Notes under the pieces: generated by a model
The model's input: only the letters and a program-made list of their open reading frames with translations
Told to the model about the DNA's origin: nothing
Databases searched by the model: none
Made by a program: the position numbers and the translations under genes
Part shown: positions 28,501 through 50,353 of the stretch, in pieces
Numbering within the stretch: position 1 is the first letter of the stretch
Layout: each line of letters starts with the position of its first letter
NCBI GenBank assembly: GCA_973895155.1
Contig: OZ316892.1
Location: 15,430,861 to 15,494,860, forward strand
Reading direction: 5' to 3'
Length of the DNA stretch: 64,000 nt
Source of the DNA: Marsupella aquatica
Taxonomy: Eukaryota > Plantae > Marchantiophyta

Positions 28501-30493
28501 TAAATACCTCAACTGGGCTGAGGTTTGAAACGGGATGCACTTGTTGCGGAGGGTTTGTAGTTAACTACAACGTCCTTTCTCTAAGGGAAGCACTTGCCCT
28601 TACCTTTCGATCTACATGGGGTTGCAACCTAGGTAGTTCCCTGGCTTGGGAGCTGTCCAGGTGTCTTTGCTGAGGTGGCAACTCCACTACCCTGACCTTG
28701 AGGGGGAGTCTAGAATCTCTCCTATTGCTTGGCCTATTGCCCATGAGGATTTGTTTGACGTTTAATACAATTGCTCTTGCATGCAATATGTTAAATACTA
28801 ATGCGGGGACAAGTCAAAGTGATCTTGTTGCAAGGTCGTGTTTCCTTCAAGAGAGTAGATGTTAATGGGAAGACACAAGAGAGCTTCACAACTTGTCAAG
28901 CACTTAGGACCATCAAAGAATAAATCTAAGATAGATCATTTAGACAGATGTTCCTTTTGACAGGGCAAGGCGTGGTTGGGCTGGCAGTGCTTGGCAATGT
29001 TATATATATATATAATTTAACCTCTTTTCACTGACCAGCTTAGCAGTATTGATGTGCTCAAACATTTTTGCCAAATACTTTGCTTACAGTCTAGTGAACA
29101 AAAGCCAGAACGTGATAGTTGTTGTCGCCATGCAACTCTTCCAAGATATGAATAATTAATTCTTAGCTTAAGTTTATGATGGAAGGGTAGGATTGAGAGA
29201 TATCTAGTAGCCCAAAATGAATTTTACCAACTAAATTTGATCCCCTTGGTCGATGAATGCCACTCCTGTCAAACGTGCCTCCTTGCAATCATCCCTTAAC
29301 TCCTTATGATCTGGTCCACGGATGAAATTCTCTCAGCTTCCCAAGCAGACCAGTGATCCTAAAAAAGAAACCAGCTCAATGCAAGGGGTCGCAAGTGAAC
29401 AAAGGGCAACTCAACGAAGACTTCCAGTTCTCACTGCCTCCAAAAATCCAAAATGTAGATTGAGCTTGAAGGGTCCCGCTTCTTCCATGTGCTCCTGGAC
29501 TTGCCTTGATCGAATGAACCCCCTCAGAATCATGCCATTGTTGTACTGATATGGACTTGACTCCCTATCGTTGGTTTAAGTCTGCTTGTGAATAGATCCC
29601 CTTGGGCTGACAGTGATTGATACTAAGTAATTACCTCCCTAGTCATGTTGTACTTCACGTGTCTTGCAATTGGCTTTGCATTCTCAGTATATAACTAACC
29701 TACTCCTACTCTGAGCATCATGGTTACACAAATTCCTGTCTTCTTGCTAATCATTATGCAATTGCAATGGCTACTTATTGTACAAAGCATATGTATATGA
29801 TTGTATTACCTTATAACGGAGACGCCGCTCATGTCGCACCTAGAGTAGAGGAGCAACAAGTGGTGGAGAACCCAAAGCCAAATCTGGTGGAAGAAGGGAG
29901 GAAGAGGAACTCCATAGGCTGAAGGAAGAATTCAGCGCGATTGGCAATATCGATGCCAATCAATGCGCCATTAGAGGGGTGATTACACCCTCACAATGTT
30001 TATAGTGGCGTAACGGAATCGGGCAGGCATCAAAGGCATTCGGGTAGCGCCAACCAAAGGCTCCCTTGCCTTGTCCCTGCCACCAGCCCTTATCCCTCCC
30101 GCGCCCTGACCCTGCGCCCTAAACCCTATCCCTGGCCCTGTCCCTCTCGCCATAGGGATGCAAGTCCCCTTCCGCACCACGCGGCCCTGGACTCGGCCAT
30201 CATCGCCCGTTTACCTTGGTCACCCACTATCACGAGTTCGACCGGGTTGTTGAGTAGTAGACATAAACCCTTACTATGTCTATACAGGGCTGCTACTATT
30301 TCAAATGTGTATATACATTTTTGAGCGGGATGTCAGTGTGCACAATTCCCCGAATGAGTACATTCTATTGAGAGAATGTGCATTCCTTGCACATTCTGAC
30401 ATTCTCATTCCTTGCCATGTGATTTTGTAAATGGTTCACACGGTATAGTGTTTGTGTGCGTCTGTGTCTTGGTGATTTGAATGTGGAATTGCA

Positions 30494-33400
30494 ATGGGCG
30501 ATGTCAGTGGAAGCGGCGGCCTGGAAGGTGGCATCTGTATGAGTCCACGGTCGTCATGTCCACACTTGGAACCTGTCATTTCTCTTGGCACCCCGCTTGG
30601 CACGCCAATGTGTGTTACATTCTTGCAGGAACGGATATCCAAGTTTATTGAACCGAATGACATACCTTGGGAATTACCCACGTATAAACATTCAGGGAGG
30701 GTTCGACAAAGTGAATGTGACGCCGCTGGACGGAGTGGTACCAGATGCTCTCAATTGTATGCTGGAGCAGCTACGGGGTCTGAATATTGAAGATGGTTAT
30801 TTACCTCATGTTGATATCAAGCCAAGGAAAACCCCATGCATCCGCAAGAGCTTTTGCGAGAAATTGTTGTGTGATAAAATTCAGGGTCCACCTTCAGGGG
30901 AATTTGATTCTAGTGGTCTCGAATGGTTTGGGTCAAGTTTTGACTCTGCTTGGATCCCGAAATGCAGACTTAAGGATTTCATATGGGGCAAAAACATGCG
31001 GGCAGATTTTCATACTGAATTCACTACCAGGCAAATGCTGGAGAACAGAATTTTCAAAATTAGCCCCTTGGTGAAGACAACAACATTGTATTGTTGTCGC
31101 TTTGGTCCCGAGGACTATAGAGGATGGAAATCAAAGAAGGTTCCAGACAAGTTGAAATCCGACGAAGGAGGTGTCTTCTTGAAAAGAAAAACTGTAACAA
31201 GTAAATATGTAACTCCGCATACCCGTTGGCATTCCATGAAGTTAATGCAGGTGCGCTGTTCATTTGAACTGAATTTTAATTTAGTATCTCCTGCCTTCCG
31301 TTCAACTCACAGGAATGTCTGTGCGCCGTGGCTGCCGATGCTCTTTCATCGCCACTAAATTTGAGGATTGGCCAAGGGCCCTATTGATCAAATGGATCCA
31401 AAGGCACCATTTGGACCGGCATGATAGGGTTTGTCATGGTCTCCAAGACAAGACAGCCTTTGTAGTAAATGCCCATATTGCACCACGGATCTCACTCAAG
31501 CTACGTACAAATATTGAAAGATATCTCAGGGCTGGCCTCACGTCAAGTGCAATTGTCAATGCTCACTTTGAAGAAATTTTGACTCGATGGCGGAAAGATC
31601 ATCTAGACGAGGATGCAAATTACGTCATGTCCAGGGACATGCAGCTCACCCCAAGAGATGTGCAGACTGTTCGAGATTCCATGCGCTGGCGTCAACCTGA
31701 CTATTGCTCTGATGAGTCACAAGCAACAAAATTGTGGGTACTATAGAATGAGGATCAAGTCATTTTATATCAATCACAGATCAAGTCAACCAACCAGCCC
31801 TTCATCCTTGCGTAGTCATCTCCATGGCAACAACAAAAAACTGGCAACCCTTCGGCATGCGGGACCAGTTGCTTTTGATGCAACATTCGATACAAACCAC
31901 TTTGGTGTAAGCACCTCCACTTTTCCCTTGTAGTGTTTGGGTTGCACGGTCTGAACGTAATTTTAACACACTGCATAGCAATGAAGTCTAATTAAGCCTT
32001 TCGTGTCATTTGGTTTTGTTACAATTCCCCTTCTACACTATGGTGGTGTTTGATAAATTCTAGAATGCAATTCCTGTAGCCTTTGCTCTATTGCAAAGGT
32101 ACAAAGTTGTACAAGTCATTTAAGTCTTGACTGCTTTGAAGGATTGTGTCAATGCAAAGAGGACGGAAATGAATTTGCATGGTCCATGGAGGCCAAACTG
32201 TTGGATCATAGACGTAGCCGAGGAGGAGCAAGCAGCAATCGGGTAATTATGTATTAATACCTTTTCGGGCATAACATAGTTCAAGTGCAAGTGCACGTCT
32301 CATTATTTTGGCACTGACATTCTAATGTTCTGGCAGCCAAGTCTTCCCAAATGTGCACATCACATTTTGCACCTGGCATGTTTGAAGAGCTTGGACGAAG
32401 AACATCATTTCAAAGGTGTTCTGCCCATTTGCTAAGGCGCACATCAATGCAGACTTGGGTCAAATCATGTATTCAATTGGCAGCGGTGAGATGAATTGTG
32501 AAGGGACTAATATGTAATTCATTTATGCCTTGTCTGTTGTGGGTAGGTTGTCTGAATTTTAATCTGCAAGATCCGAACTGAGGTTCTGAAATATCCTTCT
32601 AGTGACAAAAATGTGCAATGTTCAGATCTTACTGGCGAGTCCCAAGCCTTTATTGATCGTTGGATGGACAGTCAACCAGCATTTGTTGCATATTACAAAC
32701 AAGAGTGGCACAGGAAGGTTTGCAGCTGGGCTATAAAGCAATGTGTTTACTATCATGCAAAGTTAACCAAAAAACCAACGGGGGCATTGAACGTTGGCAT
32801 CACACTTTGAAGATGGAGTTGAAGGCTGGCAGGTACAGCATTATTGGAAGGTCAATCCCTTGGCTGCTCGGCCGTCTGAAAGTTTTGGAGAATCATTACT
32901 GGTGTATAGCAGTTGAGAAATTCCAGGGTTGGATACAAAACAAAACAATCGAAGGGCTTGTGTACAAGTCCTTAAACAGGGCAAAGGCCATCCCAGATGA
33001 TCATGTTGTCACATTCAACGTTGGTGAATTAAAATGTGCCTCTGTCCGCAACACATCGTCAATGAACAATGCCATCAAGGAACATCTTGTATCTAATTGG
33101 GACATAGACACTTGCTCTTGTACATGTGGGTTCTCGCTTCAAGGAAACGCATTGCAAACATCAGGTACACATAATGTATTGCCCGACCCCACAACGCAAT
33201 ACTAATGTTTTCCCTCAAGTGATGATTGCCAATATTGATGTCCTTCGGGCTTGCGTGCTCATGCTTAATTACCCACTTGAAGCCTGCGTCGTTGTGTACA
33301 GATAAAGGTGTTGTTGCTTACCCACACCGTGACTGAATTGGAAGTGCTACATCAACTGGGTACCAAGCTAGGCTCATTTCGTGGCGGAATTGAAAGCATG

Positions 33401-33723
33401 TGAATGTCATGGGTGAAGCAAAGCAGTTGCTGCAAGTCAGAGTAGGTGATGTCAGTCTGAATTATCCTCATGAGGATATTTGGGACACACACTGCCACGA
33501 AGAATCAGTTGCACCAATTCTGAAGTCACCACAGTTGGAGGAGTTTGAAGCAGTTGTCAAGCAATTCCACGACGCAATCTTGTATCATCCAACCCTTGCA
33601 GCTCAAGGATTGCGGGAGTTGAAGCATTGGATGGAGTCGTTGCTGAGAAGAGAAGCCCAGCAAAATGTAAGTCGGTTAGAAGGAGATATGACAGTTGAGT
33701 CTCTCATTCCCGTGGAAGGGAAT
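30494..33723 (+). pseudogene. SWIM-zinc-finger MULE-type transposase (5' part), multi-exon, degenerate
   Basis: QGPPSGEF...YCCRFGPEDY, RRGCRCSF...CHG, AFDATFDTN (first catalytic D), TNGGIERWHHTLK (catalytic E) and a SWIM CSCTC...CKH near 33110-33165. Stops and frameshifts are present. Confidence 0.85.
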
Positions 33724-34092
33724 CACAACTACATTTTTGCATTTCGGGACCAGGTGTAACCTAACCCAAGAAGACGTTCATTCCATTAAAGTTGGACTAT
33801 ATGTCGTTAATCTCCGGACTATTGTCGGATGTCGTCTGGAGATTCGACGGGATCAGATAACGTCGATTGTTGTGACGTTAAGTTTACGTCCTTTAAGACA
33901 CGGTAAGTTCCCTCGTATCATACATTGTACCTCTCATTACGTCTTCCTAGACGAGGTAACTTACCTGTTTCCTAAAGACGTAAATTAGAATGATGTATAG
34001 GACGACGTCCATAATTTTAGGCATTTGGAACGACATATCTGCAGATATGTCGTCATAGAATACCATACGTACATCGGGAAAAATAGCGTTAA

Positions 34093-34773
34093 TTCCACAT
34101 ATCAGCGTTGGACAGACTCAACTATAGGCGGGAGGCTCACTATAGCCAGCATTCCCGAGTGAAGACATCAAAGTGTAGAGAAGTTGAACCGTGGGAGGCA
34201 AAGTGTTCAGCTATGGTGCGAAAGTTCTTTGCAAATGTGCATTGTTGTTTCCTCCCACTTGGTGAGGAGGAGAAGATGGTTTGAGGGTTCTTTTGCCGTG
34301 GAGGGCTTGTTGACAAGCTATGCACCTCACAGACCGATTTCTTGATTGCAAATACATGGAAACAGGTTCTGGAGCACTTCAGTGACTATGCTGACTTGAT
34401 CGAGCATTTCGCTGAAACCTTGCATTTCATCTCTACTCGGTGGGTAGAGTGCTCCATTCTTGCCAACAAGCAGCTGGACCCAGGAGAGTTCTTGTTGCAT
34501 CCGAGCAGTGATCGTGGTCTGGAAGATTCGCCCGAGGATGATGATGGTGAGGCCTACCCTCCCACCTTGTCTAAATGTGAGCTGTCACCCACTGAACTTC
34601 ATATTGCTATGTTTGATTACAAGGAAAGTTGTGCAACCGAGGTGGAGGCTCAGAGGCTACAGGCCGGTGAAGCTGTTGTCCGGAAGAATTGGAATGCCAG
34701 CCAAAGGCGTGCTTTGTACAACAAGAGGAAAGCGGACGAGGAGTACTACTGGTCTGGAGAAGGGACTCCTTAA
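34093..34773 (+). pseudogene. Unknown cargo gene (ORF-X) of the En/Spm element, ~225 codons with one in-frame TGA
   Basis: The frame of ORF 34342-34773 continues upstream (…KCSAMVRKFFANVHCCFLPLGEEEKMV*GFFCRGG…) through a single TGA, probably from CGA. No family was recognised and the start is uncertain. Confidence 0.55.
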
Positions 34774-37700
34774 TCAACATCAGTCTGGAGGGAGGTTGTA
34801 GAGGGATGACCATGACTCATGTAGGCTACATTTGCAGTAGAAAGGATGGTAGAGCTATAGTGTATCTCTATTTGGTCTATGTGCAGCAATAAACACATCC
34901 ATGAATGTTATTTGTTGCAAAAATTGTGTGGTTTGAATGTTGTATCTTTTTCCTGTGATTAACGTCAAAAATCATTTGTTACGTTGAATGAAACGTCGTA
35001 TGTAAATTGCTAACGTCGTTATACTCGTGGTAATATAATTTTGTCGCTACATACATCGTTAAGTACGTTGTTTTTACCTTGTTACGAAGTATAGGACGAC
35101 GTTAAAGAGAGTTATAACGTCGGATAATGGTTCGGTACACGACGTTGAATCATGTTACGTCAAGGAGGCATAGCTATAAACGACGTAAAAAATTGTGCAT
35201 CGACGTAAAATTCCAAGGATGACGTTAATGACAAGTATCCCTTGTAGCAGAAGGCCAAGGGATCATGTGCATAAATGTATGGTTGTTACTTGTTTCTTTA
35301 CCAAGTTATTAACACAAGCCCATCCCACTCTCCAAATACACAGATGCCTAGGCCATGAAATATGTGTGTTTATATGCGAGGAGTGACAATAGTCAATACA
35401 AATGGCGATAGTGAGTCTATCATGTCAATCCTCATCGTCTGCAAGAGTTGATGGCATGAAGCCCTTCCTACGGTGTGGAAAGATGGGAATCACAATGGAC
35501 CATCCTCCCATGGTCTGCATCGGAACCATAATGCATTGATCCACTTGGCTAGGAAAAACTATAGTGTCACTAAACTCAGTCCCGCTTGGTGCAACACGGG
35601 TCGTGTCCACACGATAAAATCCACACTCATCCTTCACCATGGTAGCTCTTGCTGGAGGTGACATGATGGACTTGTGCCACCTCACCTCTAACACTGTGGT
35701 GGTAAACGAGCCAAAATTAACATCCAAAATATCCAAGACTATGCCACAATAAGGAACCTCAACATCACCTACATCGGTCACCATATATACTCCAGAGTTA
35801 CAAGTACTCTTCTTTCATATGGTCCGTCCTCCAAGTCCGAAAGTGGTGCCCTGACTCATACATGTGAGTATGAGTCATAGCCCACATCGAAGGCCCCCTA
35901 ATGATGTTCTGTACATCAATGGGAATGAATGTAGGGCCATGCACAGCCAGGAGCCCCTCCATGCGCTCCAAGGCCCATATGCAAAATGATGCATGAACAC
36001 GCTCTCGTGCTGCCCCTATCCGCTGCTGCTCCACCCATGCCCTGCAAGTACTGGGTCACATATACATTAGTGACCACCCTAAACCCTAAACCTTGAATGT
36101 AAATTTCAAATCTAAGTAGGACTCAACATGAAGGATTACGTCCCTACCTATACAACTCTCTCCAATCTGACATCTCCGTGCGGTTCTCCAACACATAATT
36201 GTGGATCTGTCGGCAAAAAATGTCATCATGTAATGATCTCTTCTTTGATGCGCCCATCACTCGCAACCCACCGTTGTCATCATCTTGTGTCTCTTCCCAA
36301 GCTGTGGGAGCTTGTGTGTCCAAACTTCCTATCACCCCGCTTGAGTAGAATAGGCACTCCGACATGATATACCCTGTTGCTATACTTCCCTCTGGTCAAG
36401 CGGGTTGGTGCACCCAAGACTTTAGCACTTTCATGAACTGCTCTACCCAATACATCCACCGCGCATGCATTGGACCAGCAATGGCTACCTCGTCCACCAA
36501 ATGACATAGCAAATGCAACTGCATGTCAAAAATACATGGGGGAAACACCTTCTCCATATTGCACATAACACGGGCAGACCGTTCCCTCATCTCGAGAATC
36601 TCATTCTCCTTTATTTCCTTGGCGCATACCCACCTGTATGGGGTACTCAAAATTTTGTCAAATTATTAGTATGATAAACATATGCAATGATCATAGCATA
36701 AATATATGCCAACAAGACCATATATGCTCACCTGAAAATGGAGCACAACTCATACACTGTATGTCGGAGTAGGCGTCGCTCTCTAGAATCATCACAACAA
36801 CGTGAGATAGCAGGTAACACATGCTGAATCAACTTGTGATAATCATGAGACTTCAAGCCTATTGGGGGTATGTGGTCATCCCTTGTAGTGCACCCACAAA
36901 AGCCAGCTCCGTAATGGCTAGGGAACTTCATTTCACATATCATCCCGTTCATCTCCTTCAATATCTGTCTTGGCAAAACCCAAGGAGCAGGTGGCTTCTC
37001 CCCATCTTGAGTTATCCAACAACTCTTCACCACTCCAACCTACTTTACATCCTCTCGGACCCCACAAGTATCATTCATGCCATAAATGTGCTTCACCAGG
37101 TTCTTGGCAACATTTACTTCAATATGCATGGGGTCCAACAACCATCGTATCTAGAGGATCTGCAAAATGAGTGGAGAATCAGGTTTTGTTAGTAAGAAAT
37201 TCATAAAGAGAATAAGTCTACAAGTCACTAACTTAAAAGAAGGTAAATTTATTTTACTTACCCTCCAATATGGCTAGTCCCACAAAGCTGAGCGCCTATT
37301 GACACCACAGTGCTTGGGTTGAAGTAACTTTGCCTCCACTTTCTCTGCCATCTGAATTTGGGCCTCAGCTGAGGGCCCATTGGGACATGGCCTAAACTCA
37401 GTCTCAGCCCAATGTGTGGTATTATGTTGCAAGATATCATCCATTGGTAATCGAACCCTACTGCCCTCATATGTGGTTTTGTGCAAGTGGTTAGAATATC
37501 TCCCATGCAACTCGGGACCACATGAAGGGCAAGTAGAATAACCAGCCACCTTCAACCCGGATATTGTGGCCATACCTGTGAATGAATGGAAAAAAACTGT
37601 CAGGCCATAAACATTGACCCATGCAATAGGACCCTGCACAATGCATGTCAAAAATTTTCAGTGACTGAGCATTACCTGGACCATCAGTGGTGCAGTGGGT

Positions 37701-39489
37701 GATCATCGCCCTCATCTGAAATGTCCTCTCATTATCCAGTGCACGAGTGACATCTATGGTCACTGCCCCAAACTCCCATAGCTTTTGCAATTCTTCATAA
37801 GCTGGAGCCAAACAAATATCCGGATTCTTACACGCTTGAGGACCAGGAATGATAGCGAGGAGAAGAACATGACCTTTCTTCATCGCCAACCATGGAGGGA
37901 TATTCTGATTTATCAAGAGAACTGGCCATATGGACTTAGGCTTGCGTCGTTGCTTGTATGGGTTTACCCCATCTATTGCCAACCCCAATCAAACATTCCG
38001 CGGCTCCAGAGAAAAATCAGGCCAAGTGGTGTCAATATGCTTCCACGCTGGGCTATCGTGGTGATACCGCATAATCCCTGGTGGGGACTTGTTCTCAGCT
38101 AGCATGCCAAGTTTGGAGTGCCAATAGATGTTTCCGTCGATACAGATGTTGTAGTCGGGGTGTGATTGGGAAATACCTGAAGACCTGCAAAAACCACAGT
38201 CACAACGAACCCTCCGACGTTAATTGAGATTAAACGTTGAACAAATCATCGTGTTACCTTAAATACCTTGTGATACACGAGGTAAATTGAGACGACGTTC
38301 ATAACGTCGGTAGGTTTAAAGTAACCTCGTCAGTAATGATGTTAATAATTTTACGTCGTTGAGTAAGACGTAAGGTACGTCGTATATACTATGATACATA
38401 AGATACCTCCTGATATACGTTGTAAAAGTTTGTTACGTTAACCTAGATGACGTTAAATGGGAAAAAGCCGCACTAGACAATTTAAACAATGTTTTTTGAA
38501 ACGTAACTCTATGGACTCCTACATTAATTTTGTAACAAATGTCTTCCGATCATAGCAGGAGATCTTATCTCACCTTCTTTGGAATTTTTTTGCCAATGGT
38601 GTCGGGCCGGTATCGTGGAAGCTTACATTGTGTCTCTAGGCACTCTATGTGGTCCATGTATGTCCCTCTGTACAGGATGCATCCACTTGGACACATATGG
38701 ATAGTCTCTAAAGCCAATCCAATTGAGGTTAACAACTTCTTAGCTTCCCTCACACAACCACGAAGAGTGTTTGGTTGGGGCAAGAGTTTTTGGTGGAATA
38801 GCTGGAAGAGTGCATCTGTATGGACGTATGAAGTGTTGAAAACTCCCTGCAAATTCAACATCAGCAAAGTGGCACCCAACCTGCATTTCGTGAAACCAGG
38901 GGATAATTAGTTTGAGGTATGACATTGGGTGTGGCCTGTACAAGTTCATAAGTAGAGTCTTGGGCTGGATCAAACCCTAAATTCATTAAATATTGTGAAA
39001 AAAAGAAGCATACCGTGATGATGGAGAATCCAAGAAGAGTGGAGTTCTGTCTTCCATTTCCACCTGGTCCCAATCATCCTGGTCTACTTCCATGGTAGGC
39101 CTCATGTCCTCAGGTGCATGTGGTCCAAAGTGAACGTCCACAAGGTGGGCAAAAGCATCCTCTTCAAGAATGGGTGCATCCCCCTCATCTCCATCATCCT
39201 CATCAAACTCTCCATCATATGCATCATGGTACTCCTCATGGTCACTATCCAAATCATCAGGCTCCAAGTCATCATCTTCATCATCATCAAAATTTAGAGT
39301 GGCACGTAGGTGAAAGGCACGCGCTGACATTGTCATCATGGATGGGTGAGGTGTAGGAGTAACATATGCACCATCCTATAATTGTGAAATCCAATATTTG
39401 ATACAAAGTCATATATAATCAAACGCAATAAACGACACAACAATGTATTATGCAACAATGGGTCCATAAATTACAAATATGTCATATCG

Positions 39490-40299
39490 TCAATGTCGAT
39501 CATAATCTACAAGAATCTCTTCCCCTGCTCTAATGGTGAGGGTAGCATGGGTCAAGATGTAATGCGTACAAGCCATGGGCAAATGAGGGTGAGTCTGGTC
39601 ATGGTACTCATGCCACTCAGCGTTTGGCCTAAAACCTGAACGCCGAGAACCCAATGTGCTATTGATGTAACCCGCCAGGTTTCCAGTGCGCGGCGGGTAA
39701 CCATCCATCTGAGCATACCTAGGGTCAAGCTTGACCGACATGCCATATCGACCAAAGGTCGGACATTGTTGAGACAAGATGCGCCATCGTTGAGCAAAAT
39801 ACTTAGGCCCATAGAATGGAAAGAGCTGAGGCAAGTCCTTGGGCGCACAACCATTAGGGACCACAATATCTACAAGCGCAAATAATCCAAGCCCTACACC
39901 AGGGCCCAATGTGGAGGGGAGGAGGACCCATGGGCGATCCCAAACTATGATAGGCTCCCTAATTGGAAGGTCCACAGGGAGCCCAAATTGGGTAGGGAAG
40001 GAGTCCTTTACAATGTCCAAGGCTCTCCCATGCAACTCTCTCGGTGCCCGAGCAATAGATGCATCAAGAAAAGGACAATGTGGTGGCCTCTCCCTAGGCG
40101 GACGAGACTCCAAAGACCGTGGTCTGGTATTGACCATGACTCCCCTCTCAATAGGGTGCACCTGTGAAACCCTCCTATCAAAAACACGGTCTATTGCCCT
40201 CAAAGTGGCATCTAGAGCTGATGGGGGCACCAGTGCAGTCAGAGCTCGACGTGCAACCTCTCTCATTCTGTCCTTAGGAGGTGACGGCACAACCAGAAT
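39490..40299 (-). CDS. SET-domain (lysine methyltransferase-like) terminal exon nested in the transposase intron; predicted ~444-aa protein when spliced to exon 40954-40430
   Basis: PSTLGPGVGLGLFALVDI, FYG, GNLAGYINS...PNA and ATLTIRAGEEILVDY are SET motifs. A GT-AG intron 40429-40300 (130 nt, phase 0) joins it in frame to transposase exon 1. The reading frame is intact. Confidence 0.85.
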   Translation of the reverse strand: MLVVPSPPKDRMREVARRALTALVPPSALDATLRAIDRVFDRRVSQVHPIERGVMVNTRPRSLESRPPRERPPHCPFLDASIARAPRELHGRALDIVKDSFPTQFGLPVDLPIREPIIVWDRPWVLLPSTLGPGVGLGLFALVDIVVPNGCAPKDLPQLFPFYGPKYFAQRWRILSQQCPTFGRYGMSVKLDPRYAQMDGYPPRTGNLAGYINSTLGSRRSGFRPNAEWHEYHDQTHPHLPMACTHYILTHATLTIRAGEEILVDYDRH

Positions 40300-40723
40300 C
40301 TGTTCCACATGTAAGCAAGAAAATCTCAACATGCCAGCAAACTTGAGCATTCATGATTGAAGGCAAAGTACTCCAACCTTGTGATAGTTAAAGTTAAGCA
40401 AATGGTTTTGCAATAAGAAGGAAACTCACCTCGGGTATTGGTGGTACATGACGACCATGCATCCCTAAATGGCTAACGACAGTAGTCCTCTCGTGAGATA
40501 CAACACCCTTGCATCGTCTACAAGGGCAAGGCATCTTCTGGACTGGTCCAATCCCATGAAGAGCAGCCATGGCCTCTCCAAACCCCTCGTCCAAAGAGGA
40601 AGGTGAGCTGTGACCATGGGGCTCTGGATGACGATGAACGTCATATGGCCGATGGGGGCTCCTATCTCTCCTATCCTCCTGCCTCCGTTGATGGCGATGA
40701 CGTCGGGATCTACGACGTCTCGA

Positions 40724-40870
40724 CCTCCTCCGCTCTGGCAAGTAGTCCCTCCTCCTCTCCGAAGAGTAGTCCCTCCTCCTCTCCTGAGAGTAGTCCCTCC
40801 TCCTTCTCGGCGAGTCGTCCCTCCTCCGCTCTGGCGAGTAGTCCCTCCTCCTATGAGGAGAATAATCCCT
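40724..40870 (-). repeat. 24-bp coding tandem repeat (~6 copies) encoding RRRDYSPE-like units
   Basis: RDYSPHRRRDYSPERRRDDSPRRRRDYSQERRRDYSSERRRDYLPERRR in ORF 40394-41002. Confidence 0.9.
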
Positions 40871-41421
40871 ATCCCTATCATGATGCCAGTATCTGCGACC
40901 AACAATCGTATCCCCATCATCTATGTCATCGGACAGAGAGTCATAGATCACCATGTCCTGCAACCAATAAAACCATCTCTCATTTGAGAAAAACCTATAC
41001 AAAACCCCTCACAAAAACCCATCCTTAAAACCCTACAAATTACAACCTAATATTAGTTTTAACGTCGTTTTTTTCAAAAACCCTAACATTTAACGTCCCG
41101 CTTAAACCCTGTCCGATGTCGATTACATCTTACAGAATGACGTTCCTAAACTTAACGTCGTTTAGGACAAGGTGCTCACAGGAAACGTTGTTTGGAAGAG
41201 ACGTAAACAGGACATTAAAGCGACATTAAAGAGACGTTAAAGAGACGTTAAAATGACATAAATTGCAAGAAACGGCAAGCCCGCAAGGTTAAGTGTTTCC
41301 CTGGTCATTTCCTTCAGAAAACATCGGGGTTGTGTTCGAATGCGAGTCACATTCGACATTCCCCAATGCACCTCTAATCCTCACCTCTCTTGGTCTCCTC
41401 TACCTCACAGAATCGCCCGCC

Positions 41422-43471
41422 ATGTCTCATCCAGGCTACCTTCCATGCAGTGTGAACTTTGATGCAGTGAAGGTGGCCATGGAGGATCTAGAGGAGATGG
41501 AGAAGGTGCATACAGCACTACGTTTGACACATTCACTAGTTCAGGCCTTCAACCATAGCTGGCAATTCATGGGAGGATAGGGAACGAAGGAGTCCAGGTT
41601 TATAGAGTACCTGGAGAGTATTGAGGCCAATGCTCCCGACCAAGAGGAGGTGGCCGAGGTTGAAGCGCCAGATGTCGTTGGAGAGCTTGATGGGGCATCG
41701 ATTGATCCGCTGCCTACATTCCCAGCACTAGCAGACGATGGTTGGGACGATCCAACCTTCTGTGAGATCCAGCTAGATTCTCAGGCAACTGCTCAAACCC
41801 CTATCAAGAGTCAAGTGAGGATCGCACATGAGAGATACAGGGCAGACGATGAGAGGAGGGACCGTCGAGCACATAGGAGGAGGAGGCAATCTCGGTCTTT
41901 GTCAAATAGCAGCACTGAAAGGAGAAGGCGAAAGGGGAAAGGAACCAATGAGCACAATGCAGAGACATCAAGGTCAAAGAGACGTAGGGGAGATCGACAT
42001 CATGGAGCATAGAGGAGAAAGGAGCACTCACATTTAGAGCGGCGATCACATCCTCAACAAGCTCCTGCCAGCAAGGAGCACCTCCCCACCATCACCCTTG
42101 CTGCTTTTGATGCAAGGCCGGACGTTTTGGATGAGAAAGCACTCACAAACAGAGTGCAGACCTGTGTAACTAAACACTGCCTTGGTTGGACGACCTGGAA
42201 GGAGCTGGTACATAACGAAAAGAAGTTCCAAGTGCTCCTGAATGATGTGCAGGCTGGATTCAGAAATGGGCGAGAGATTGACTACCCCCACATCAGGAAG
42301 AAGATTGTGAATCACCTTGCTGATCGACGGTTCAGGTGGAGAGCAAAGGTGTGCAAACTCAGGTGCATAAGGACGGGGGAGTATAAGAAACCCGATGGCA
42401 TGAGCGAAGCTGACTTCAAATTGATTGTCAGTGAACTCGAAGCAGCCCCGGACACCCTAGTTGGAAAGCGAGTGCGTATGGGAGACAAGGCCACTGCTGT
42501 TTGAAAAGCGAGTGGCAAGAAGGTGACGAATTTCTGGGGGCAGGGAGGATGGGGAGGATTTCTTGCAACCTATGTAAGTTCTCTTCCATTTCACATTGCG
42601 CAATCATTCAAATCAATGCCTTGTGGTGCTGCTTCGGTGTGAAACAGTAATTAACGTCGTTCTTTTAGATTAACGTCTCCATTGCCAAATTGAACGTCGC
42701 TCAAATCGTCATATTTCACCCTTTACGTCTCACGAGATGACGTTACACTACCCCTAACATTGTTGTTGCGACATTAATGCCATCGAGTAATATGTAACAT
42801 TGTTTGGGACGACGCAACTAGTTTAACATAGTAGTGAGGTGTGTAAAGTACCTCCTCTTGAACGACGTAATGTGACTTTTGCTGCAGAAGCAAAAGTATG
42901 GCCGAGATGCCCACCCAAGTGAGCAAGAGCGCTTGTACTCCAAGCGATATGGCCCGGCAGCCCTATGGGCAAAGCTTGATTCAACTCCCGAAGACTTCCC
43001 AGTAAGTAGTGATGTCTTGGCTACATTGTATTAACACCATTCCATAGACATGGAGTGAAAGCGTATCTTGTGCCAACCTAGACTAAAACCGTTCTTGTAT
43101 ACAGGTGGATTGGACTGCACCAGAGGGTTTAGTAGCATGACCCATTGCAGAGGATGAGGATGCTGACACTGTCCCGCTTGAGGCGGGTACCCAGGAGGAG
43201 GCCTCGGTACCATGCGGACAGCATGGTGGGACTTCTCGTGATCTTTTCCCTGAAGGAGGACGAGGGAGATAGAGAAAGACGGAGAGATAGAGAGAGGAGG
43301 AGGAGCAGTGGTGAGAGGCATTCCACTAGGGTACCTTGTAGCACTAGAACAACAAGAAGCAAGGCTGCGCCGGAGCCAGATAGTAGTACCTCAGAGCAGG
43401 ATGACCAGAGGTACGAGTTGCGCCGGCGAGGCGGACAGTCAGGACGTGATAGGCAATCTCAACGACATTAG
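41422..43471 (+). pseudogene. TnpA-like (Ptta/En/Spm, Transposase_24-like) gene, divergent from the transposase
   Basis: One frame 41422-42573 is broken only by TAG/TAG/TGA, each explicable by C>T. It reads WKELV...F...IRKKIVNHLADRRFRWR...KPDGMSEADFKLIV...WGQGGW. GT-AG introns lie at 42574-42887 and from 43002. Confidence 0.7.
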
Positions 43472-44148
43472 CTAGGAGGCCTAATTTTGTATGTTACATC
43501 TCGGATTTGTATTCAAAACACTCATTTGTGGTGGCATATCATTCTAGGTTACAATGTGTATAATGAATGCATGTATTCTATATTGAACCAGAACAACAAC
43601 CCGAACCAGTCACGTACTACCGTGCCTAATCACGTATACTACCGTGCCTAATCGTGTATACGTCCTGTTGTGTTACACTCTTAACTGTTCCGAACATCAT
43701 GATGGACTATGTTCCCCAATGTACGTCCGCATACAGAAGTAGATAACCATGTTATTTACTGTGTAGACCGTACCAAACGTCATAAGAAATGTCACACTTA
43801 ACCAACTAAACTACGTTGCACCCGTTAAACATGGTGTCTTACATGGCAATGCACAACGTATCAAACTTGGTTAAACAATGTCTAACGTCATTTCTAGCCA
43901 CGTCAATAGGCCATGTTATCAACAATGGCGCGTTGATGTTAACGTCGTCTAATACAATGTTAAGTAGAGAACGTCTCAGTCGGCGACGTTAAGTATGTTG
44001 TGTAATGCTACATTAAGAACGTTAGGGTGTACATTGTTAGTAACGTCGCTACTTAAACATCGTTGGGTGGGACTTTTCCACACGTCGGTTGAACGTCGCA
44101 ATTAACGTCTGCTTAAATTACGTTAATCAAGCAGATAATGTAGTTGTG

Positions 44149-44751
44149 AATGACATAACCACAGTGAGGAAGCGAGGGTGGGTGGATAAATTGATGGGCG
44201 TAAAGGGCCGTCCAAAGTGTATTGGGAAGACGGGAGATGTCATAGCTAACAAGGAGAACATGCCATCATATCCGGACGGGGACCCACGCAATTCTGTATG
44301 CGGTGTTCATAAGCCAGAGAAGATGGTGAAGAAGACCAAAGAAAAACAACCATCATTCCAGGGAAAATTTGATGTGGAGACGGTTGAGACGCTACGGGAC
44401 ATGTGCAAATCTATCTTAGATAGACTACATTCCATGGATCCACAAACCAATCATGTAAAACGTGAAGCACCTAGCAGCGCCACAAGAAAGAGAGGACGTC
44501 CCGCAAAAAGCAGATCAACGTCACCGTTCCCGATTGAGAAAGTCCTCACCCAGGCGTCTCAAAATATGCCCCTCAAACGCCCTCTATGCAAACAAACCGT
44601 TGACATGCTAGGCCAAGTTTGGGTAGGCTCGAGCGCAGCCTGGGCAATGGCACCCAACTTTGCAGAGGTTGTTCATGCATTTTTGTTGGGAAATGTAAAT
44701 AGCACTGTAGTGTTGAGTCCAGAAGCCATAGTGTCCATCGTAGAAGAGTAG
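44149..44751 (+). pseudogene. 3' part of the SWIM/MULE transposase gene split by the En/Spm insertion
   Basis: In frame with ORF 33400-33723 across the AAT TSD. It has an AT-hook-like RKRGRPAK. Confidence 0.8.
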
Positions 44752-46620
44752 TTGCCGCCCATGACCGGGGCTGACATGGAAACGATGCTATAAATAAAAG
44801 TTGCCACACTTTTTGGTTGCCAAAAGCTGCCATGTTACTATCTTATCATGGTCACATTACATTGTGAGGCAAGTCATGTAAATTCAGTAATGCACGCGGA
44901 ATGCTTCGTTGGCTTGGTTCTTCGGGAATGGATAAATAATGTTTGTGATCGGATCATCTTTGCGAGGTACACTAGTTTCCTGACAGCGCAGCCAACCAGA
45001 CTTGCAAGTCTTATTCATGTTAACAAATGTAATTGTAATGAGGTATAGTGCAAGTAATTATCTTGTATCATTGAAATTGGGCTCCTTTATATAAGAGTTT
45101 GGCAAATACATGATGAGCGATCAACATATAACCATGTAATACAAAGGGTCTTGCACTACAGTATATAATTGCCTTGTATATTTAGGCAGGTACAAAAACT
45201 CGTTGTTGTGACATCCTTCACTAACTCCTTTGTTACCCGAATGAAAACCTCAGGTTACATACACTGAAACCAGTGTAATACAATGTTTGTTGCTCTGAAC
45301 TACTCTACTCAGATTATGCTATGATTACGGTTCACATGCCGGTGCTGGCAAGAAATAATCAGGAGAAGCTGTTGTTGGTAATGGAGGTGGGGCGTTCAAA
45401 TCATAAACATGATCGGCAGGCACGTGGACTACATCGTCCTCAGCAATTGAAGTAACTTCAATGCAAATTGAGGCTGCATGAACATCTTCAATTGCAAGTT
45501 CACTTGACGTAAAGCTGGGAGGAATGCGAGTGGAACTTCTAACTCCATTTCGACCTTCCCTTCCAACCTACCACCTTCTTTCTCATGTGCTTCCCACTCA
45601 CAACTAATCACCATCACCATCTTCCCACCAATCAATTGATTACAACAACATTCGTTTGCTTGAAGGTGCGGAATCAAATTTGTACCAAAAGCTAGAAAGC
45701 TGCAGACCCCCCTCCGGCATCCGATTTTTCTCTCACCAACCAGACCTTGGTTGGTGCTCATAATTTTCCAGAAGGTGCGCCTACTTCCCTTCTACCTCCA
45801 CAAAAACTATCAGCAAATTTGGTCAAGCAAATGTGGCTCCAGAAAATATTTGGTGTTGCTGATTTTTCTTACCATGAGTTTTCCGCGATTTTGACTTCGA
45901 CAACTTGTGATTCGACATTATCTCTCCAATTCGACTTGTCTTTCCAGGCCACGATTGCTTCACTTCATTTCTTGCAACTGATGACCACCTAATCCACCAT
46001 ATCTCATCAATCAATTGTTGATGGAGTCTTCACTCCTACCTAACTCCATATCTCAATCAGTCTTATCACCAACTAAGTAATTTCCTATTTCTTCCTTTAC
46101 TCCTTTGATTCATCTACCTCTTCTTTCCTCTTCTTTTGACTACCCTCATCCACATGAGAGTACCATCTTTAGGAGTACCCCTCTTTTCACTCATGAGTAC
46201 CCCCCCGGTTAACTCGCAACAAAATGGCCAAACGGCTTAGCGGCCTAGTGGTTTTGCGGTAAAACTACTAGACGCCTATTCCTTGCAATTTTAAAAAATC
46301 TAACCTGAACTCCGTTTGTGCTGAAATTTTTCCAGTGCGTTTTCTCTACCTATAATCTATTGTTGAGTATAGACGATGATCGCAACGGCAAGCCCATGAA
46401 CCATCCACCGCACAATAGTCGACACAAGAGATACGTGGTTCACCTCCTTGAGGCTACGTCCACGGGAACACACAAGAGAGCTTTACTGAACTCTAAGCCC
46501 ATCGGCTATACCGAGTCTCCACAGTGTAAGCTCTCCCTATCTCTCAAGTGGCTCCATAACAATGAGCCTTGGTTCTACCTCTCCAAGCACACATGCCTCT
46601 TATGATATAGTGTGCAACTT

Positions 46621-46853
46621 AGTTGTACCTAACCACATAGTTGTACCTAACCACATAGTTGTACCTAACCACATAGTTGTACCTAATCACGTAGTTGTAC
46701 CTAACCACATAGTTGTACCTAATCACGTAGTTGTACCTAACCACATAGTTGTACCTAATCACGTAGTTGTACCTAACCACATAGTTGTACCTAATCACGT
46801 AGTTGTACCTAACCACGTAGTTGTACCAACCCACGTTGTTGTACCAACCACGT
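46621..46853. repeat. 18-bp tandem array (13 units) in the 3' LTR U3
   Basis: AGTTGTACCTAACCACAT (A) and AGTTGTACCTAATCACGT (B) in the order AAABABABAB, followed by 3 diverged units. Confidence 0.97.
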
Positions 46854-47080
46854 CATACCTAACCTAGACGTAAGAGTAAATACCCAACAATCTTCCCCTT
46901 GACTCTGGTCTAGGGGAGAGTAATACTGCCAATGTATATGATCCCTCAGCGGGAAGTTCTGGACAGAAACCAAACCGGTTTCCCTCTCTAACTAGAGCAA
47001 ACCAGAACTAAGCCGTAGCCTAATACATAGGAATGAGGAAGAGCATATATCAGTAATTACAATGAATGTTTAAGAAAACT

Positions 47081-47641
47081 CTACTTGTGATGCAATTGCA
47101 AAACCTGCAATACGTCACGGTGTCTAGAGAAACTCTCCAAAGGAATCACTTTGGTAAATGCGTCAGCCGGGTTGAGTTTACCATCAATCTTGACTAGCTC
47201 AAACAATTTATCAGACACAGCCTGCCTGATAAAATGGTACCTGACGTCAATGTGCTTCACTCTGCTGTCCATCACCTGGTTCACAGCAAGGTGGAGCGCA
47301 CTTTGACTATCACAATGGAGCTTCACATTCCCCTGTGGCAATCCCATTTCAGTGATAAGTCTATCCAACCAAATCGCTTCCTTTGCTGCTTCCGCAGCTG
47401 CAACATACTCCGCTTCTGTAGTAGACTGAGCAATACACTTCTGCAAAGTAGACCTCCAACTTATGCATCCACCGCCAAGTATGAACACGTATCCTGTTGT
47501 TGATCTCCTTCGGTCCAAATCTTGTCCATAGTCAGAATCAACATAGCCAATCAATGATTTAGCATTCTTTGCATTCGCATCAAATAAAAGACCATGATCC
47601 ACGGTACCCTTCAAGTACCTGATAATCCACTTCACTGCTTC
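47081..47641 (-). CDS. Copia RNase H region (C-terminal pol, separated by a TGG>TAG nonsense codon)
   Basis: GYVDSDYG...STTGYVF...STTEAEYVA...CDSQSA...KHIDVRYHFIR...NPADAFTK, in the same frame as 47642-50308. Confidence 0.93.
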   Translation of the reverse strand, partial: EAVKWIIRYLKGTVDHGLLFDANAKNAKSLIGYVDSDYGQDLDRRRSTTGYVFILGGGCISWRSTLQKCIAQSTTEAEYVAAAEAAKEAIWLDRLITEMGLPQGNVKLHCDSQSALHLAVNQVMDSRVKHIDVRYHFIRQAVSDKLFELVKIDGKLNPADAFTKVIPLESFSRHRDVLQVLQLHHK

Positions 47642-50353
47642 CTAGTGTACCTTCCCTGGATTCGACATGTACCTGCTCACCTTGCCCATAGCCATGGCAA
47701 GATCAGGTCTAGTGCAAGTCATCAAATACATGAGACTCCCCACTGCCTTGTCATACAGAACCTTTGACATCAACCCCTTCTCTGTGTCATCCGTAGGACA
47801 GAACGCTAATGATAACTTGAAGTGTGGAGCCAATGGGGTACTTACTGGCTTGCTATTCCCCATGTTGAACCTTGCAATTACCTTCCTCGCATAACTGCTC
47901 TGCGTCAACCATAGCTTGCCAGGCTCCAAGTCCCTAGTGATCTCCATACCCAAAATCCTCTTAGCTGGCCCTAAGTCCTTCATCTTAAACTCTGCACTAA
48001 GCAGTGCCTTGAGCTTAACAATCTCAGACCTATCCTTCGCTACAATTAGCATATCATCCACATAAAGTACTAAAACAATGAACCCAAAGACAACATTCTT
48101 TACCGGTTTCAAATACACACAAGGGTCAAATACACTTCTGTGAAAACCTTGTGACCGAATCCAATCGTCAAACCGCTTGTTCCACTGTCTTGGTGACTGC
48201 TTCAACCCATACAAGGATTTCAGCAATCTGCAAACCAATTCCTCCTGTCCTCTCTTCACAAAACCTAGCGGTTGTCTCATGAAGATCACCTCTTCCAATG
48301 TGCCATAGAGGAAAGCTGTGACAACATCCATCTGATCTAGGAGCAGACCAAACATTACAACAAGTACACACAATAGTCGTATTGTAGAGTACTTAGCAAC
48401 TGGTGAGAAGACCTCATTGTAATCCACACCTTTCTCTTGTGTGAATCCCTTTGCTACCAATCTAGCCTTGTAGACCTTCGATCCACCTCCTATGGAATTA
48501 TCCTTCAGCTTGTAAATCCACTTGCTGTCCACCACTTGCTGACCCTTAGGCAGCTTAACAAGCTCCCAAGTTTTGTTGTCCTTTAGTGACTGCATCTCTG
48601 TTTGCATTGCTGCAGTCCACTTCTGCTTCTCCTTTGAAGCACTTGCCTCATGAAATGAAGAAGGTTCCCCTTCTTCCAAAATTAACGCATCACCCTCATC
48701 ATCAGTTGTAAAATCATCCTCTTGCAGTTGAGATGAATCAACCCACTGTCCATACCTTGGTGGAGCGCGTACAGTGCGACCAGATGTTCTTCTAGCCGAT
48801 GACTCCGGTTGATCTACGTGTGCTGGTACAATTTGAAGCTCAACAGCATCCACTTGCTGCTCACCAGCATCAACAAACTCCTCTGGTTCCTCTGGCACAG
48901 GAACCAGCTCCATAATTGGAGCAACTCCTTCTCTCCGGTCATGCACCTCATAACCAATCTCCCCCTCAACGAGATCCGGGATAGGAGATTTTCCTTTGTC
49001 AGTACGGGAGACCTGAGTATTCTCCCCCTCCTTCAATAATCTGGATTCATTGAATGAAACATCCCTACTGACAACGAGCTTACAGGCAATAGGATCCCAT
49101 AGCCTATAGGGTTTCACACCACTCTGGTACCCAAGAAAAACACATTTCCTGGAGGTAGGATCCAACTTGGTCCTATTCTGCTTCGGTGTGAGAGCATATG
49201 CATCACTTCCAAAAACTACCAAGCCATGATAGTCTGCTTGCCGCTTATAGCGCATCTCAAACGGCGTTTTGAAATTGATAGCACTAGAAGGAGAAAGATT
49301 TACCAAATAAGCTGCGGCATTGACAGCTTCTGCCCAAAATTCTTGTGGTAAACCTGATTGGCTCAACATACTCCGTGACCGCTCCAACAGTGTCCGATTG
49401 AGCCTCTCAGCGACACCATTCTGCTGCGGAGTATAAACTATGGTGAGATGGCGAGTTATCCCCTGTTCTGAACAGTACTCTTCAAATTCCATTGAAGTGT
49501 ACTCCCCGCCGTTGTCTGACCTCAGACTCTTCACCCTTGTATCCAAACACTTGATCGTGTTTCCAGTCTGATTCTCCACCTGGGCCTTCCACTTCTTAAA
49601 AATGGACAAGACATCAGACTTATGCGTCATGAAATAAATCCACACAAATCTTGAGTAATCATCAATAAATGATACATAGTACAACTTTCCAGAGTGTGAG
49701 GGAGTCGGGGATGGACCCCACACGTCACTATGTATGTACTCAAGAACCGCTTTGGAACGATGAGTTCCAACACCAAAAGCACGACGATGCTGCTTTCCAA
49801 GAATGCAATGCTCACAAAACTCTAATTTACAAGATTGCAAATCAGAAATGAGTCCATTCTTCCGTAAGATAGCCAAACCCTTCTCACTCATGTGGCCTAG
49901 CCGTGAATGCCACAGTTGAGTCATCTCCTCGTGAGACTTGGTTACATTGGCCTCTCCACATACAGTATTGCCCTGTAACACATACAAATTCTTTTGTCTA
50001 CTCCCCTTCAAAATCACTGTCTCTCCCGACCTGACTTGAAGTTCACCATCAATAACGCTCCATTGATGACCATTTGAATCCAACACACCGAGTGAAATCA
50101 GATTCTTACGCATGCCAGGTACATACTTGACTCCGGACACTGTGCGCACAGCGCCATCAAACATTTGAATCTTCACAGACCCAATTCCCTCAATTTGACA
50201 GGAGTGATCATTTCCCATCAGAACTGAACCGTTTGAAACAGAGTAAGAACTGAAAAACTCACGAATGTAACAAATATGAAAAGAGCAAGCACAATCAAGA
50301 ATCCACACATCATCTGCTCTCCTAGATGACGTGCACAGGGCATACCCCCAGCT
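47642..50353 (-). CDS. pol: Copia pol: protease, GAG-pre-integrase, integrase, reverse transcriptase
   Basis: WILDCACSFH, LWHSRLGH...CEHC, IHSDVWGP...LRSDNGGEY...PQQNGVAER, YKARLVAKG, QMDVVTAFL, SLYGLKQ and LYVDDML. Confidence 0.97.
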   Translation of the reverse strand, partial: SWGYALCTSSRRADDVWILDCACSFHICYIREFFSSYSVSNGSVLMGNDHSCQIEGIGSVKIQMFDGAVRTVSGVKYVPGMRKNLISLGVLDSNGHQWSVIDGELQVRSGETVILKGSRQKNLYVLQGNTVCGEANVTKSHEEMTQLWHSRLGHMSEKGLAILRKNGLISDLQSCKLEFCEHCILGKQHRRAFGVGTHRSKAVLEYIHSDVWGPSPTPSHSGKLYYVSFIDDYSRFVWIYFMTHKSDVLSIFKKWKAQVENQTGNTIKCLDTRVKSLRSDNGGEYTSMEFEEYCSEQGITRHLTIVYTPQQNGVAERLNRTLLERSRSMLSQSGLPQEFWAEAVNAAAYLVNLSPSSAINFKTPFEMRYKRQADYHGLVVFGSDAYALTPKQNRTKLDPTSRKCVFLGYQSGVKPYRLWDPIACKLVVSRDVSFNESRLLKEGENTQVSRTDKGKSPIPDLVEGEIGYEVHDRREGVAPIMELVPVPEEPEEFVDAGEQQVDAVELQIVPAHVDQPESSARRTSGRTVRAPPRYGQWVDSSQLQEDDFTTDDEGDALILEEGEPSSFHEASASKEKQKWTAAMQTEMQSLKDNKTWELVKLPKGQQVVDSKWIYKLKDNSIGGGSKVYKARLVAKGFTQEKGVDYNEVFSPVAKYSTIRLLCVLVVMFGLLLDQMDVVTAFLYGTLEEVIFMRQPLGFVKRGQEELVCRLLKSLYGLKQSPRQWNKRFDDWIRSQGFHRSVFDPCVYLKPVKNVVFGFIVLVLYVDDMLIVAKDRSEIVKLKALLSAEFKMKDLGPAKRILGMEITRDLEPGKLWLTQSSYARKVIARFNMGNSKPVSTPLAPHFKLSLAFCPTDDTEKGLMSKVLYDKAVGSLMYLMTCTRPDLAMAMGKVSRYMSNPGKVH

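Follow-up and report, generated by a model that had tools for sequence, protein, structure and literature searches.

A conserved exon with a predicted SET fold in the first coding intron of a liverwort EnSpm/CACTA transposase gene and its likely use as an alternative last exon

Can a single transposon transcription unit encode, by a choice of splice site, either a transposase or a chromatin-modifying enzyme? The question is raised by an EnSpm/CACTA element of 10,425 bp (33724-44148) in the liverwort Marsupella aquatica (assembly GCA_973895155.1, contig OZ316892.1, forward strand positions 15,430,861 to 15,494,860; this whole 64-kb stretch is the window, and coordinates count from its first letter). 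An initial annotation, made from the DNA letters, had proposed that a SET-domain exon of this element can be spliced, as an alternative to the transposase exons, onto the same first exon. Our analysis partly supports that interpretation: the first coding intron of the transposase gene holds a conserved exon with a predicted SET fold, and we cautiously favor the reading in which it is an alternative last exon that yields a zinc-finger-SET methyltransferase acting on chromatin.

The transposase gene lies on the minus strand and opens with a coding exon of 525 nt (40430..40954, ATG at 40954), or 175 codons ending in phase 0, in which 24-nt Arg/Asp/Ser tandem repeats are followed by a CxCxxC...H motif. 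This exon matches PF13963 (transposase-associated domain), a family that by its Pfam name belongs with transposases, partially and under the cut-off (E 4e-4), and its finger motif recurs in a metagenome contig, L001, and in proteins of the liverwort Riccia sorocarpa. Its phase-0 donor, GAG/GTGAGT (slashes mark splice boundaries; GT at 40429-40428), is followed by two phase-0 acceptors. The nearer, CAG/ATT at 40299, closes a purine-rich intron of 130 nt with a weak-looking acceptor (40300..40429, minus strand, GTGAGT...AACAG) and opens the SET-domain exon (39490..40299, minus strand; 810 nt, 269 codons plus TGA). Beyond the stop, an AT-rich stretch of 114 nt (39376..39489, minus strand), either the 3' untranslated region of a SET isoform or the 3' part of a long intron, ends in the second acceptor, TATAG/GAT, from which TAG/GAT at 39375 leads in phase 0 into an acidic exon and then into the Tnp2 transposase. 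The TnpD/Tnp2 exons, about seven in number (35425..39375, minus strand), match PF02992 (E 2.7e-25 and 2.7e-5) and, by tblastn, the Riccia protein P0084; their boundaries were set by eye at 39375-39004, 38884-38569, 38186-37675, 37576-37260, 37159-36729, 36633-36147 and 36050-35425. Because the SET exon carries a stop, the finger exon can join Tnp2 only by skipping it.

The exon coordinates and phases, the donor, both acceptors and the intact 269-codon exon with its stop at 39490 had been given in the initial annotation, and all hold on re-reading, as does the length of about 444 aa for the finger-SET product (175 + 269 = 444 aa). The shared exon stands as a layout but not, in all likelihood, as the first exon: an acceptor-like AG lies 3 nt upstream of its ATG in the window and 2 nt upstream in L001, so it is probably only the first coding exon, following a leader intron. 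To judge from the DNA layout, one pre-mRNA quite probably yields either of two products. Splicing from 40430 to 39375 would skip the SET exon and give a transposase with a normal N-terminal transposase-associated domain; splicing from 40430 to 40299 would include it, end translation there and give a 444-aa zinc-finger-SET protein, with SET as an alternative last exon.

The predicted protein of the exon comprises two N-terminal helices, a disordered Arg/Pro linker and a SET core at about residues 100-269. The initial annotation had suggested a search with Pfam SET (PF00856) and a structure prediction. Taken alone, the exon falls below the Pfam cut-off (E 0.0034, 18.2 bits against 22.4), and we identify it by its fold and family rather than by that score. 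Fifteen of the 16 rows of a first alignment match Pfam SET at E <0.1, and no other family, and several distant relatives score above the cut-off. The fold itself is borne out: an AlphaFold model built with the 16-row alignment reaches pLDDT 80.9 (residues 43-85 are disordered), Foldseek ranks SETD8 first (E 3.4e-6), and structure comparison gives Z 12.5 for both Set1 (rmsd 2.7 A, 124 residues) and SETD8 (2.2 A, 121 residues), with PRC2, SET7/9, NSD2, PRDM3/5 and LegAS4 at Z 11.0-12.2. Nearly all of the best 50 structure matches listed are SET/PR proteins by title, and for a predicted model such near-equal Z-scores name no substrate. Identity to solved SET domains is 13-25%, and the exon is without a pre-SET, post-SET or ankyrin region. 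No more than a lead toward a bacterial or viral origin of this SET family is an atlas row labeled 'Type III effector protein', which scores 0.95 but was recognized below threshold and has SET in 11% of its members.

Relatives of the exon are numerous. A word search gave 15, of 147-471 aa and 39-63% identity, and 69 matches were found among 1.84 billion representatives, one of them spurious (P0077). An organism is on record for 11 of the 30 proteins looked up, and all are liverworts (three Calypogeia fissa, eight Riccia sorocarpa). The window's SET domain clusters with two Calypogeia proteins in a nine-row clade (98/93), Riccia has two separate SET lineages that are mutually 38-41% identical, and further lineages occur in Calypogeia; key SET positions are kept over homologues of 26-63% identity. 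Among viral contigs, none of 38 pattern matches is related. P0071/P0111 of Calypogeia fissa represent a distant SET relative (about 31% identity, on a long branch) with repeated Cys/His motifs, weakly matching DUF5763, in place of the transposase finger, and may come from another kind of element.

The metagenome contig L001, one of 134 pattern matches, is 47% identical to the window and repeats its layout. A Ser-rich exon 1 carries the finger (PF13963, E 4.9e-4) and ends in a phase-0 donor GAG/GT; AG then opens a SET exon that closes with a stop codon, and a further AG leads in phase 0 into an acidic exon that has EEDAFA in common with the window. In both, only 130-145 nt separate the finger donor from the SET acceptor. 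One internal stop in the SET exon makes L001 a dead copy too. In the window the exon stays open in none of 20,000 base shuffles; openness in this one copy is nevertheless no evidence of selection, because P is about 0.27 at the stop rate of the transposase. The comparison of the two copies is more telling: identity at codon positions 1, 2 and 3 of the SET exon is 0.57, 0.62 and 0.36, with dN 0.59 and dS 2.1, a ratio that is rough since dS is near saturation. The initial annotation would have been refuted by an exon confined to this copy or by a recent host fragment with dN/dS near 1. The exon is neither, as far as this rough ratio goes, and its sequence supports a view of it as old transposon cargo under purifying selection. 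Contigs from public runs (four runs of unrecorded kind, from two organisms and two studies; the contigs cover introns) cover the full length of the element, in many variants. X1 record 6 and X3 record 20 run from exon 1 through the intron into the SET exon, and in some contigs the exons match and the introns at 40320-40440 and 39378-39490 diverge. A 40430 to 40299 joint does not figure among the 15 listed of 80 joints, which carries no weight for contigs of this kind.

Does the finger exon join the SET exon in a transcript? A CxCxxC-type finger lies upstream of SET in six of the 69 matches (four by pattern, two by eye). Finger-SET gene models of Riccia sorocarpa are P0048, P0046, P0069, P0085 and P0084, the last of which joins the finger, half a SET and then Tnp2; P0049 is one 423-aa open reading frame (ORF) on a 2,141-nt contig, possibly RNA or intron-less DNA. 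We infer finger-to-SET splicing from DNA anatomy, conserved phases and such gene models, and several observations weigh against it. The Riccia entries are predicted genes, and they leave SET at different points: in P0045 and P0073 its end is followed by the acidic exon, whereas P0084 crosses over to the transposase midway through SET. The 15 matches of 147-471 aa include no close 444-aa fusion, and a search of longer proteins gave no fusion of 526-2000 aa, which is weak evidence. Met12 of the exon is matched by Met in five close homologues, and an ATG directly follows the acceptor in L001, P0032 and P0098, so that a stand-alone gene is permitted. A search with the Riccia finger region matched P0084 and P0048 alone and returned no SET-skipping model; counts of poly(A) signals after the SET stop were uninformative.

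These start codons are the main ground for the alternative that survives best, in which SET is encoded by a nested accessory gene that has a transcript and a start codon to itself (Met12 or the acceptor ATG) and lacks the finger exon. The published transposon-borne SET genes cited below are separate genes as well. However, four of the five Met12-type proteins (P0001, P0002, P0004, P0005 and P0006) merely begin at that residue, as the gene caller forces, and P0009 and P0011 are without Met12, their frames extending upstream to a Gln preceded by T-rich codons, as expected from a phase-0 CAG acceptor. Such a Gln was counted in 16 of 53 N-termini versus 19 of 197 background windows, in noisy data with redundant rows. 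The short distance from donor to acceptor in the window and L001 and the finger-plus-SET proteins on record also argue for a shared transcript, and we consider a separate gene unlikely, though by no means negligible.

If the finger-SET isoform is made, its activity can be judged from a 51-row alignment, built from 50 near-complete homologues drawn from the overlapping sets of 15 and 69 matches, with the spurious repeat protein P0077 excluded. Both the GxG motif and the C-terminal ExxxxY (E261, Y266) of the SET family are present. G138, Y167, N226 and E261 are invariant, and G136 (48/50), G164 (50/51), N213 (46/51) and Y266 (49/51) nearly so, as are D199, G200, N207, S214 and G259. We take the roles of G136/G138, E261 and Y266 to be S-adenosylmethionine (SAM) binding and catalysis (Tyr). 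Four features tell against an active enzyme. The first is the want of a canonical NHS motif, as His is absent from all 51 rows (N213 is kept in 46). The second is that the protein stops 3 residues after the knot tyrosine Y266, without a post-SET region; most homologues likewise have short C-terminal tails. The third and fourth concern residues of this copy. Its Phe162 is shared by its subfamily (23 of 51 rows), whereas the other 28 rows and LegAS4 carry Tyr, and its Arg268 stands in place of the Trp or Phe of 31 of 51 rows. Position 162 (Tyr-x-Gly) presumably corresponds to SET8 Y245/EZH2 Y641, which tunes the methylation state.

The missing histidine is the lesser concern. Among PDB sequences, which neither the single sequence nor the 16-row profile matched, the 51-row family profile finds LegAS4 best (E 5.6e-5), aligning GNLAGYINS to GNLTRYINFS, which is His-less as well. 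LegAS4 is reported to methylate H3K14 (10.64898/2026.05.29.728679), and the His-less motif therefore implies no dead enzyme. The initial annotation had raised both the YINS motif and the absent post-SET domain as doubts, of which the former is eased and the latter stands. In SET enzymes, the post-SET or C-flanking region closes the active-site pocket, and the very short C-terminus is a real doubt about activity, more so than the NHS histidine. On the strength of the model and the conserved residues, it seems reasonably likely that the SET domain binds SAM and methylates lysine.

The doubts about the C-terminus and the histidine also feed a second alternative, in which the isoform is made but is no histone writer. 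It would instead be a SET fold with weak catalysis that serves in binding or sequestration, or an enzyme acting on something other than histones, for example the transposase, the TnpA-like protein described below or a host silencing factor. The PR domains of PRDM proteins, at Z 11.5-11.7, are tied with active enzymes in our structure comparison, and a shared fold proves no function. Yet GxG, GN..YIN, N226, E261 and Y266 are nearly invariant over 26-63% identity, and LegAS4 is reported to be active with the same His-less motif; we regard this alternative as improbable. Very improbable is a single long, SETMAR-like finger-SET-transposase protein, in which splicing from a site within the SET exon would take out the stop: the Riccia models P0084, P0045 and P0073 do run from SET into transposase exons, but they use differing exit points and lose the conserved Y266, the SET exon of the window has no consensus-like donor toward its end, and in both the window and L001 the stop after SET is kept, with another phase-0 acceptor following it. 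A chance-captured, decaying fragment of a host SET gene (Pack-CACTA type) is largely refuted, since, for all that the Pfam score is weak and both copies are dead, elements 47% identical carry the exon in one and the same place, Riccia alone has two or more SET lineages only 38-41% identical and Calypogeia has others, dN lies well below dS between the window and L001, and the single sequence matches no solved host SET protein.

How might the zinc-finger-SET protein find its target? The motif GACGTWA occurs 40 times in the window against 6.3 expected, a number reached in none of 100 shuffles, and 35 of the 40 sites lie inside the element (33858-44109), all outside coding exons: at both ends, in the intergenic stretch, in three introns and between the divergent genes. 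They form subterminal clusters at 33858..33983 and 43883..44109 (five copies each), an intergenic cluster at 34960..35227 (eight copies; CpG obs/exp 2.3 in the bin 35000-35249), one in a transposase intron at 38216..38455 (five copies), one between the divergent genes at 41060..41250 (six copies), likely a promoter or leader-intron region, and one in a likely intron of the plus-strand gene at 42652..42870 (five copies). CpG obs/exp is 1.1-2.3 in bins with GACGTWA clusters versus mostly 0.15-0.8 in exons. L001 has seven related sites against 0.6 expected, four of them upstream of exon 1, where a similar cluster lies (L001:89-195).

In the proposed mechanism, the putative SET isoform would be a lysine methyltransferase acting on the chromatin of the family's own copies, guided there by the shared Arg-rich/zinc-finger N-terminus or by a partner that occupies the GACGTWA clusters, and would deposit a mark that opposes host silencing. 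By analogy with known systems, the clusters are candidate binding sites of an anti-silencing protein and thus for self-targeting. We put forward tentatively that the methylated target is a histone tail of the element's own copies, reached in one of these two ways, and that the mark is anti-silencing. More doubtful is the full scheme of a splice switch between 'jump' and 'mark', in which the SET isoform is self-targeted to GACGTWA clusters to protect the copies and these CpG-rich clusters from silencing and is kept across both main liverwort groups sampled. The product of the plus-strand TnpA-like gene is at least as likely to be the GACGTWA binder as the finger-SET isoform, and it counts against a role for SET that TnpA alone accounts for such clusters in Arabidopsis Spm (10.64898/2026.08.24.746577).

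The element itself, a member of a bryophyte-type EnSpm/CACTA family, is a dead copy. Its perfect 12-bp terminal inverted repeats (TIRs), CACAACTACATT, have exactly two matches in the window, at 33724 on the plus strand (33724..33735) and at 44148 on the minus strand (44137..44148), and begin with CACAA, one base off the CACTA/CACTG start of the superfamily. The element has the superfamily's 3-bp target site duplication (TSD), with AAT on either flank (33721..33723 and 44149..44151), its subterminal repeated motifs, as GACGTWA clusters at both ends in addition to internal ones, and its Tnp2/TnpD transposase, above the PF02992 cut-off (E 2.7e-25) and broken in this copy by a frameshift near 35815 and, over some 1,013 codons, five in-frame stops. 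Since the public-run contigs carry other letters at two of these stops, 37153 and 36398, the transposase damage is largely private to this copy. We found no second copy of the element in the 64-kb window.

Head-to-head with the transposase unit lies a divergent gene on the plus strand (41420..43150) with in-frame stops, which is TnpA-like by eye only. It has no Pfam match and weak atlas matches, and its predicted model (pLDDT 49) is too poor for a fold search. Tentatively, the TnpA-like gene seems here to be separate and on the opposite strand, so that SET would fill the alternative-isoform slot that TnpA holds in maize. A third ORF region (34100..34773, plus strand; longest open stretch 34285-34773) points toward the 3' end of the transposase and has no Pfam match. 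The element is nested in a broken plus-strand coding region that is MULE/SWIM-like by eye (30476-34800, 44044-44751), and the ORF at 44044-44751 (plus strand) crosses the element's right end into the flank. Farther out, a Copia-type long terminal repeat (LTR) retrotransposon pol (47081-50353, minus strand; integrase, reverse transcriptase and RNase H by eye) has a 903-aa open frame, and is adjoined by an 18-nt tandem repeat (46490-46867, plus strand; translated VVPNHI/V).

If the zinc-finger-SET reading is true, the element would directly write chromatin in a land plant, through a methyltransferase whose production is linked to that of the transposase by alternative splicing, and would encode a chromatin enzyme self-targeted through the transposase's own N-terminus. 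With about 170 residues, the SET domain is small; it is also conserved and occurs in Riccia, so its activity and substrate lend themselves to direct tests. The exon and its relatives make up a divergent SET family, His-less and often missed at standard Pfam thresholds. The core SET fold is shared with SETD8, Set1/MLL, EZH2, PRDM and LegAS4/RomA (Z 10-12.5), and the His-less YIN motif with LegAS4.

Transposons and SET domains have met before. SETMAR is a single domesticated host gene whose one protein has a SET domain ahead of a mariner transposase; there, as it would be here, SET is spliced to transposon sequence, but the SET of the window is the cargo of a multi-copy element and stops before the transposase. 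The initial annotation had drawn this contrast, and it is confirmed by the stop between SET and Tnp2 in the window and L001, the intact TIRs and TSD and the many variant copies.

Closest in superfamily is the red-algal Plavaka element (EnSpm/CACTA superfamily), in which PAG2 is a separate gene for an N6-adenine DNA methylase plus SET (10.1101/2025.02.11.637652). Both are EnSpm-superfamily elements with a SET domain (PF00856) for which a modulation of chromatin is a proposal; in the window, exon 1 and the SET exon are without a methylase domain, and SET is nested in the transposase gene. HarbingerS and Phytophthora MuDR elements carry SET genes (PMC12730594), as do Helentrons, with a SET gene 50% similar to Clr4 (PMC4067079). 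These too are DNA transposons with a SET methyltransferase gene, but they belong to other superfamilies and hosts and carry it as an accessory gene or separate ORF, whereas the SET exon of the window belongs to a divergent His-less family without a close solved relative. In the open-licence papers of PMC and bioRxiv, we found none on a SET exon within a transposase intron or on a bryophyte CACTA-SET element. The initial annotation knew of no described system of this layout, which holds, within those papers, for the shared exon but not for SET-bearing EnSpm-superfamily elements as such, PAG2 being published; what appears new is a SET exon that shares the finger exon of the transposase, transposon-borne SET accessory genes being known.

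Known plant anti-silencing factors, VANC and TnpA, bind DNA and borrow host demethylases. Like GACGTWA, the VANDAL motif is short and clustered in introns and in intergenic and terminal non-coding regions (PMC5735166); VANC, however, is a MuDR accessory protein without SET, and GACGTWA binding here is putative. In maize En/Spm, alternative splicing gives TnpA and TnpD, and in Arabidopsis Spm3, TnpA is a sequence-specific anti-silencing factor (10.64898/2026.08.24.746577; PMC13547354); split TnpA/TnpD genes also occur in Arabidopsis, arranged head-to-tail (PMC13547354), whereas the TnpA-like gene here is, tentatively, separate and head-to-head. As in Spm, one transcription unit accompanied by dense motif clusters would give either a transposase or a regulator, but where TnpA binds DNA and recruits host demethylases, the alternative product here would itself be an enzyme.

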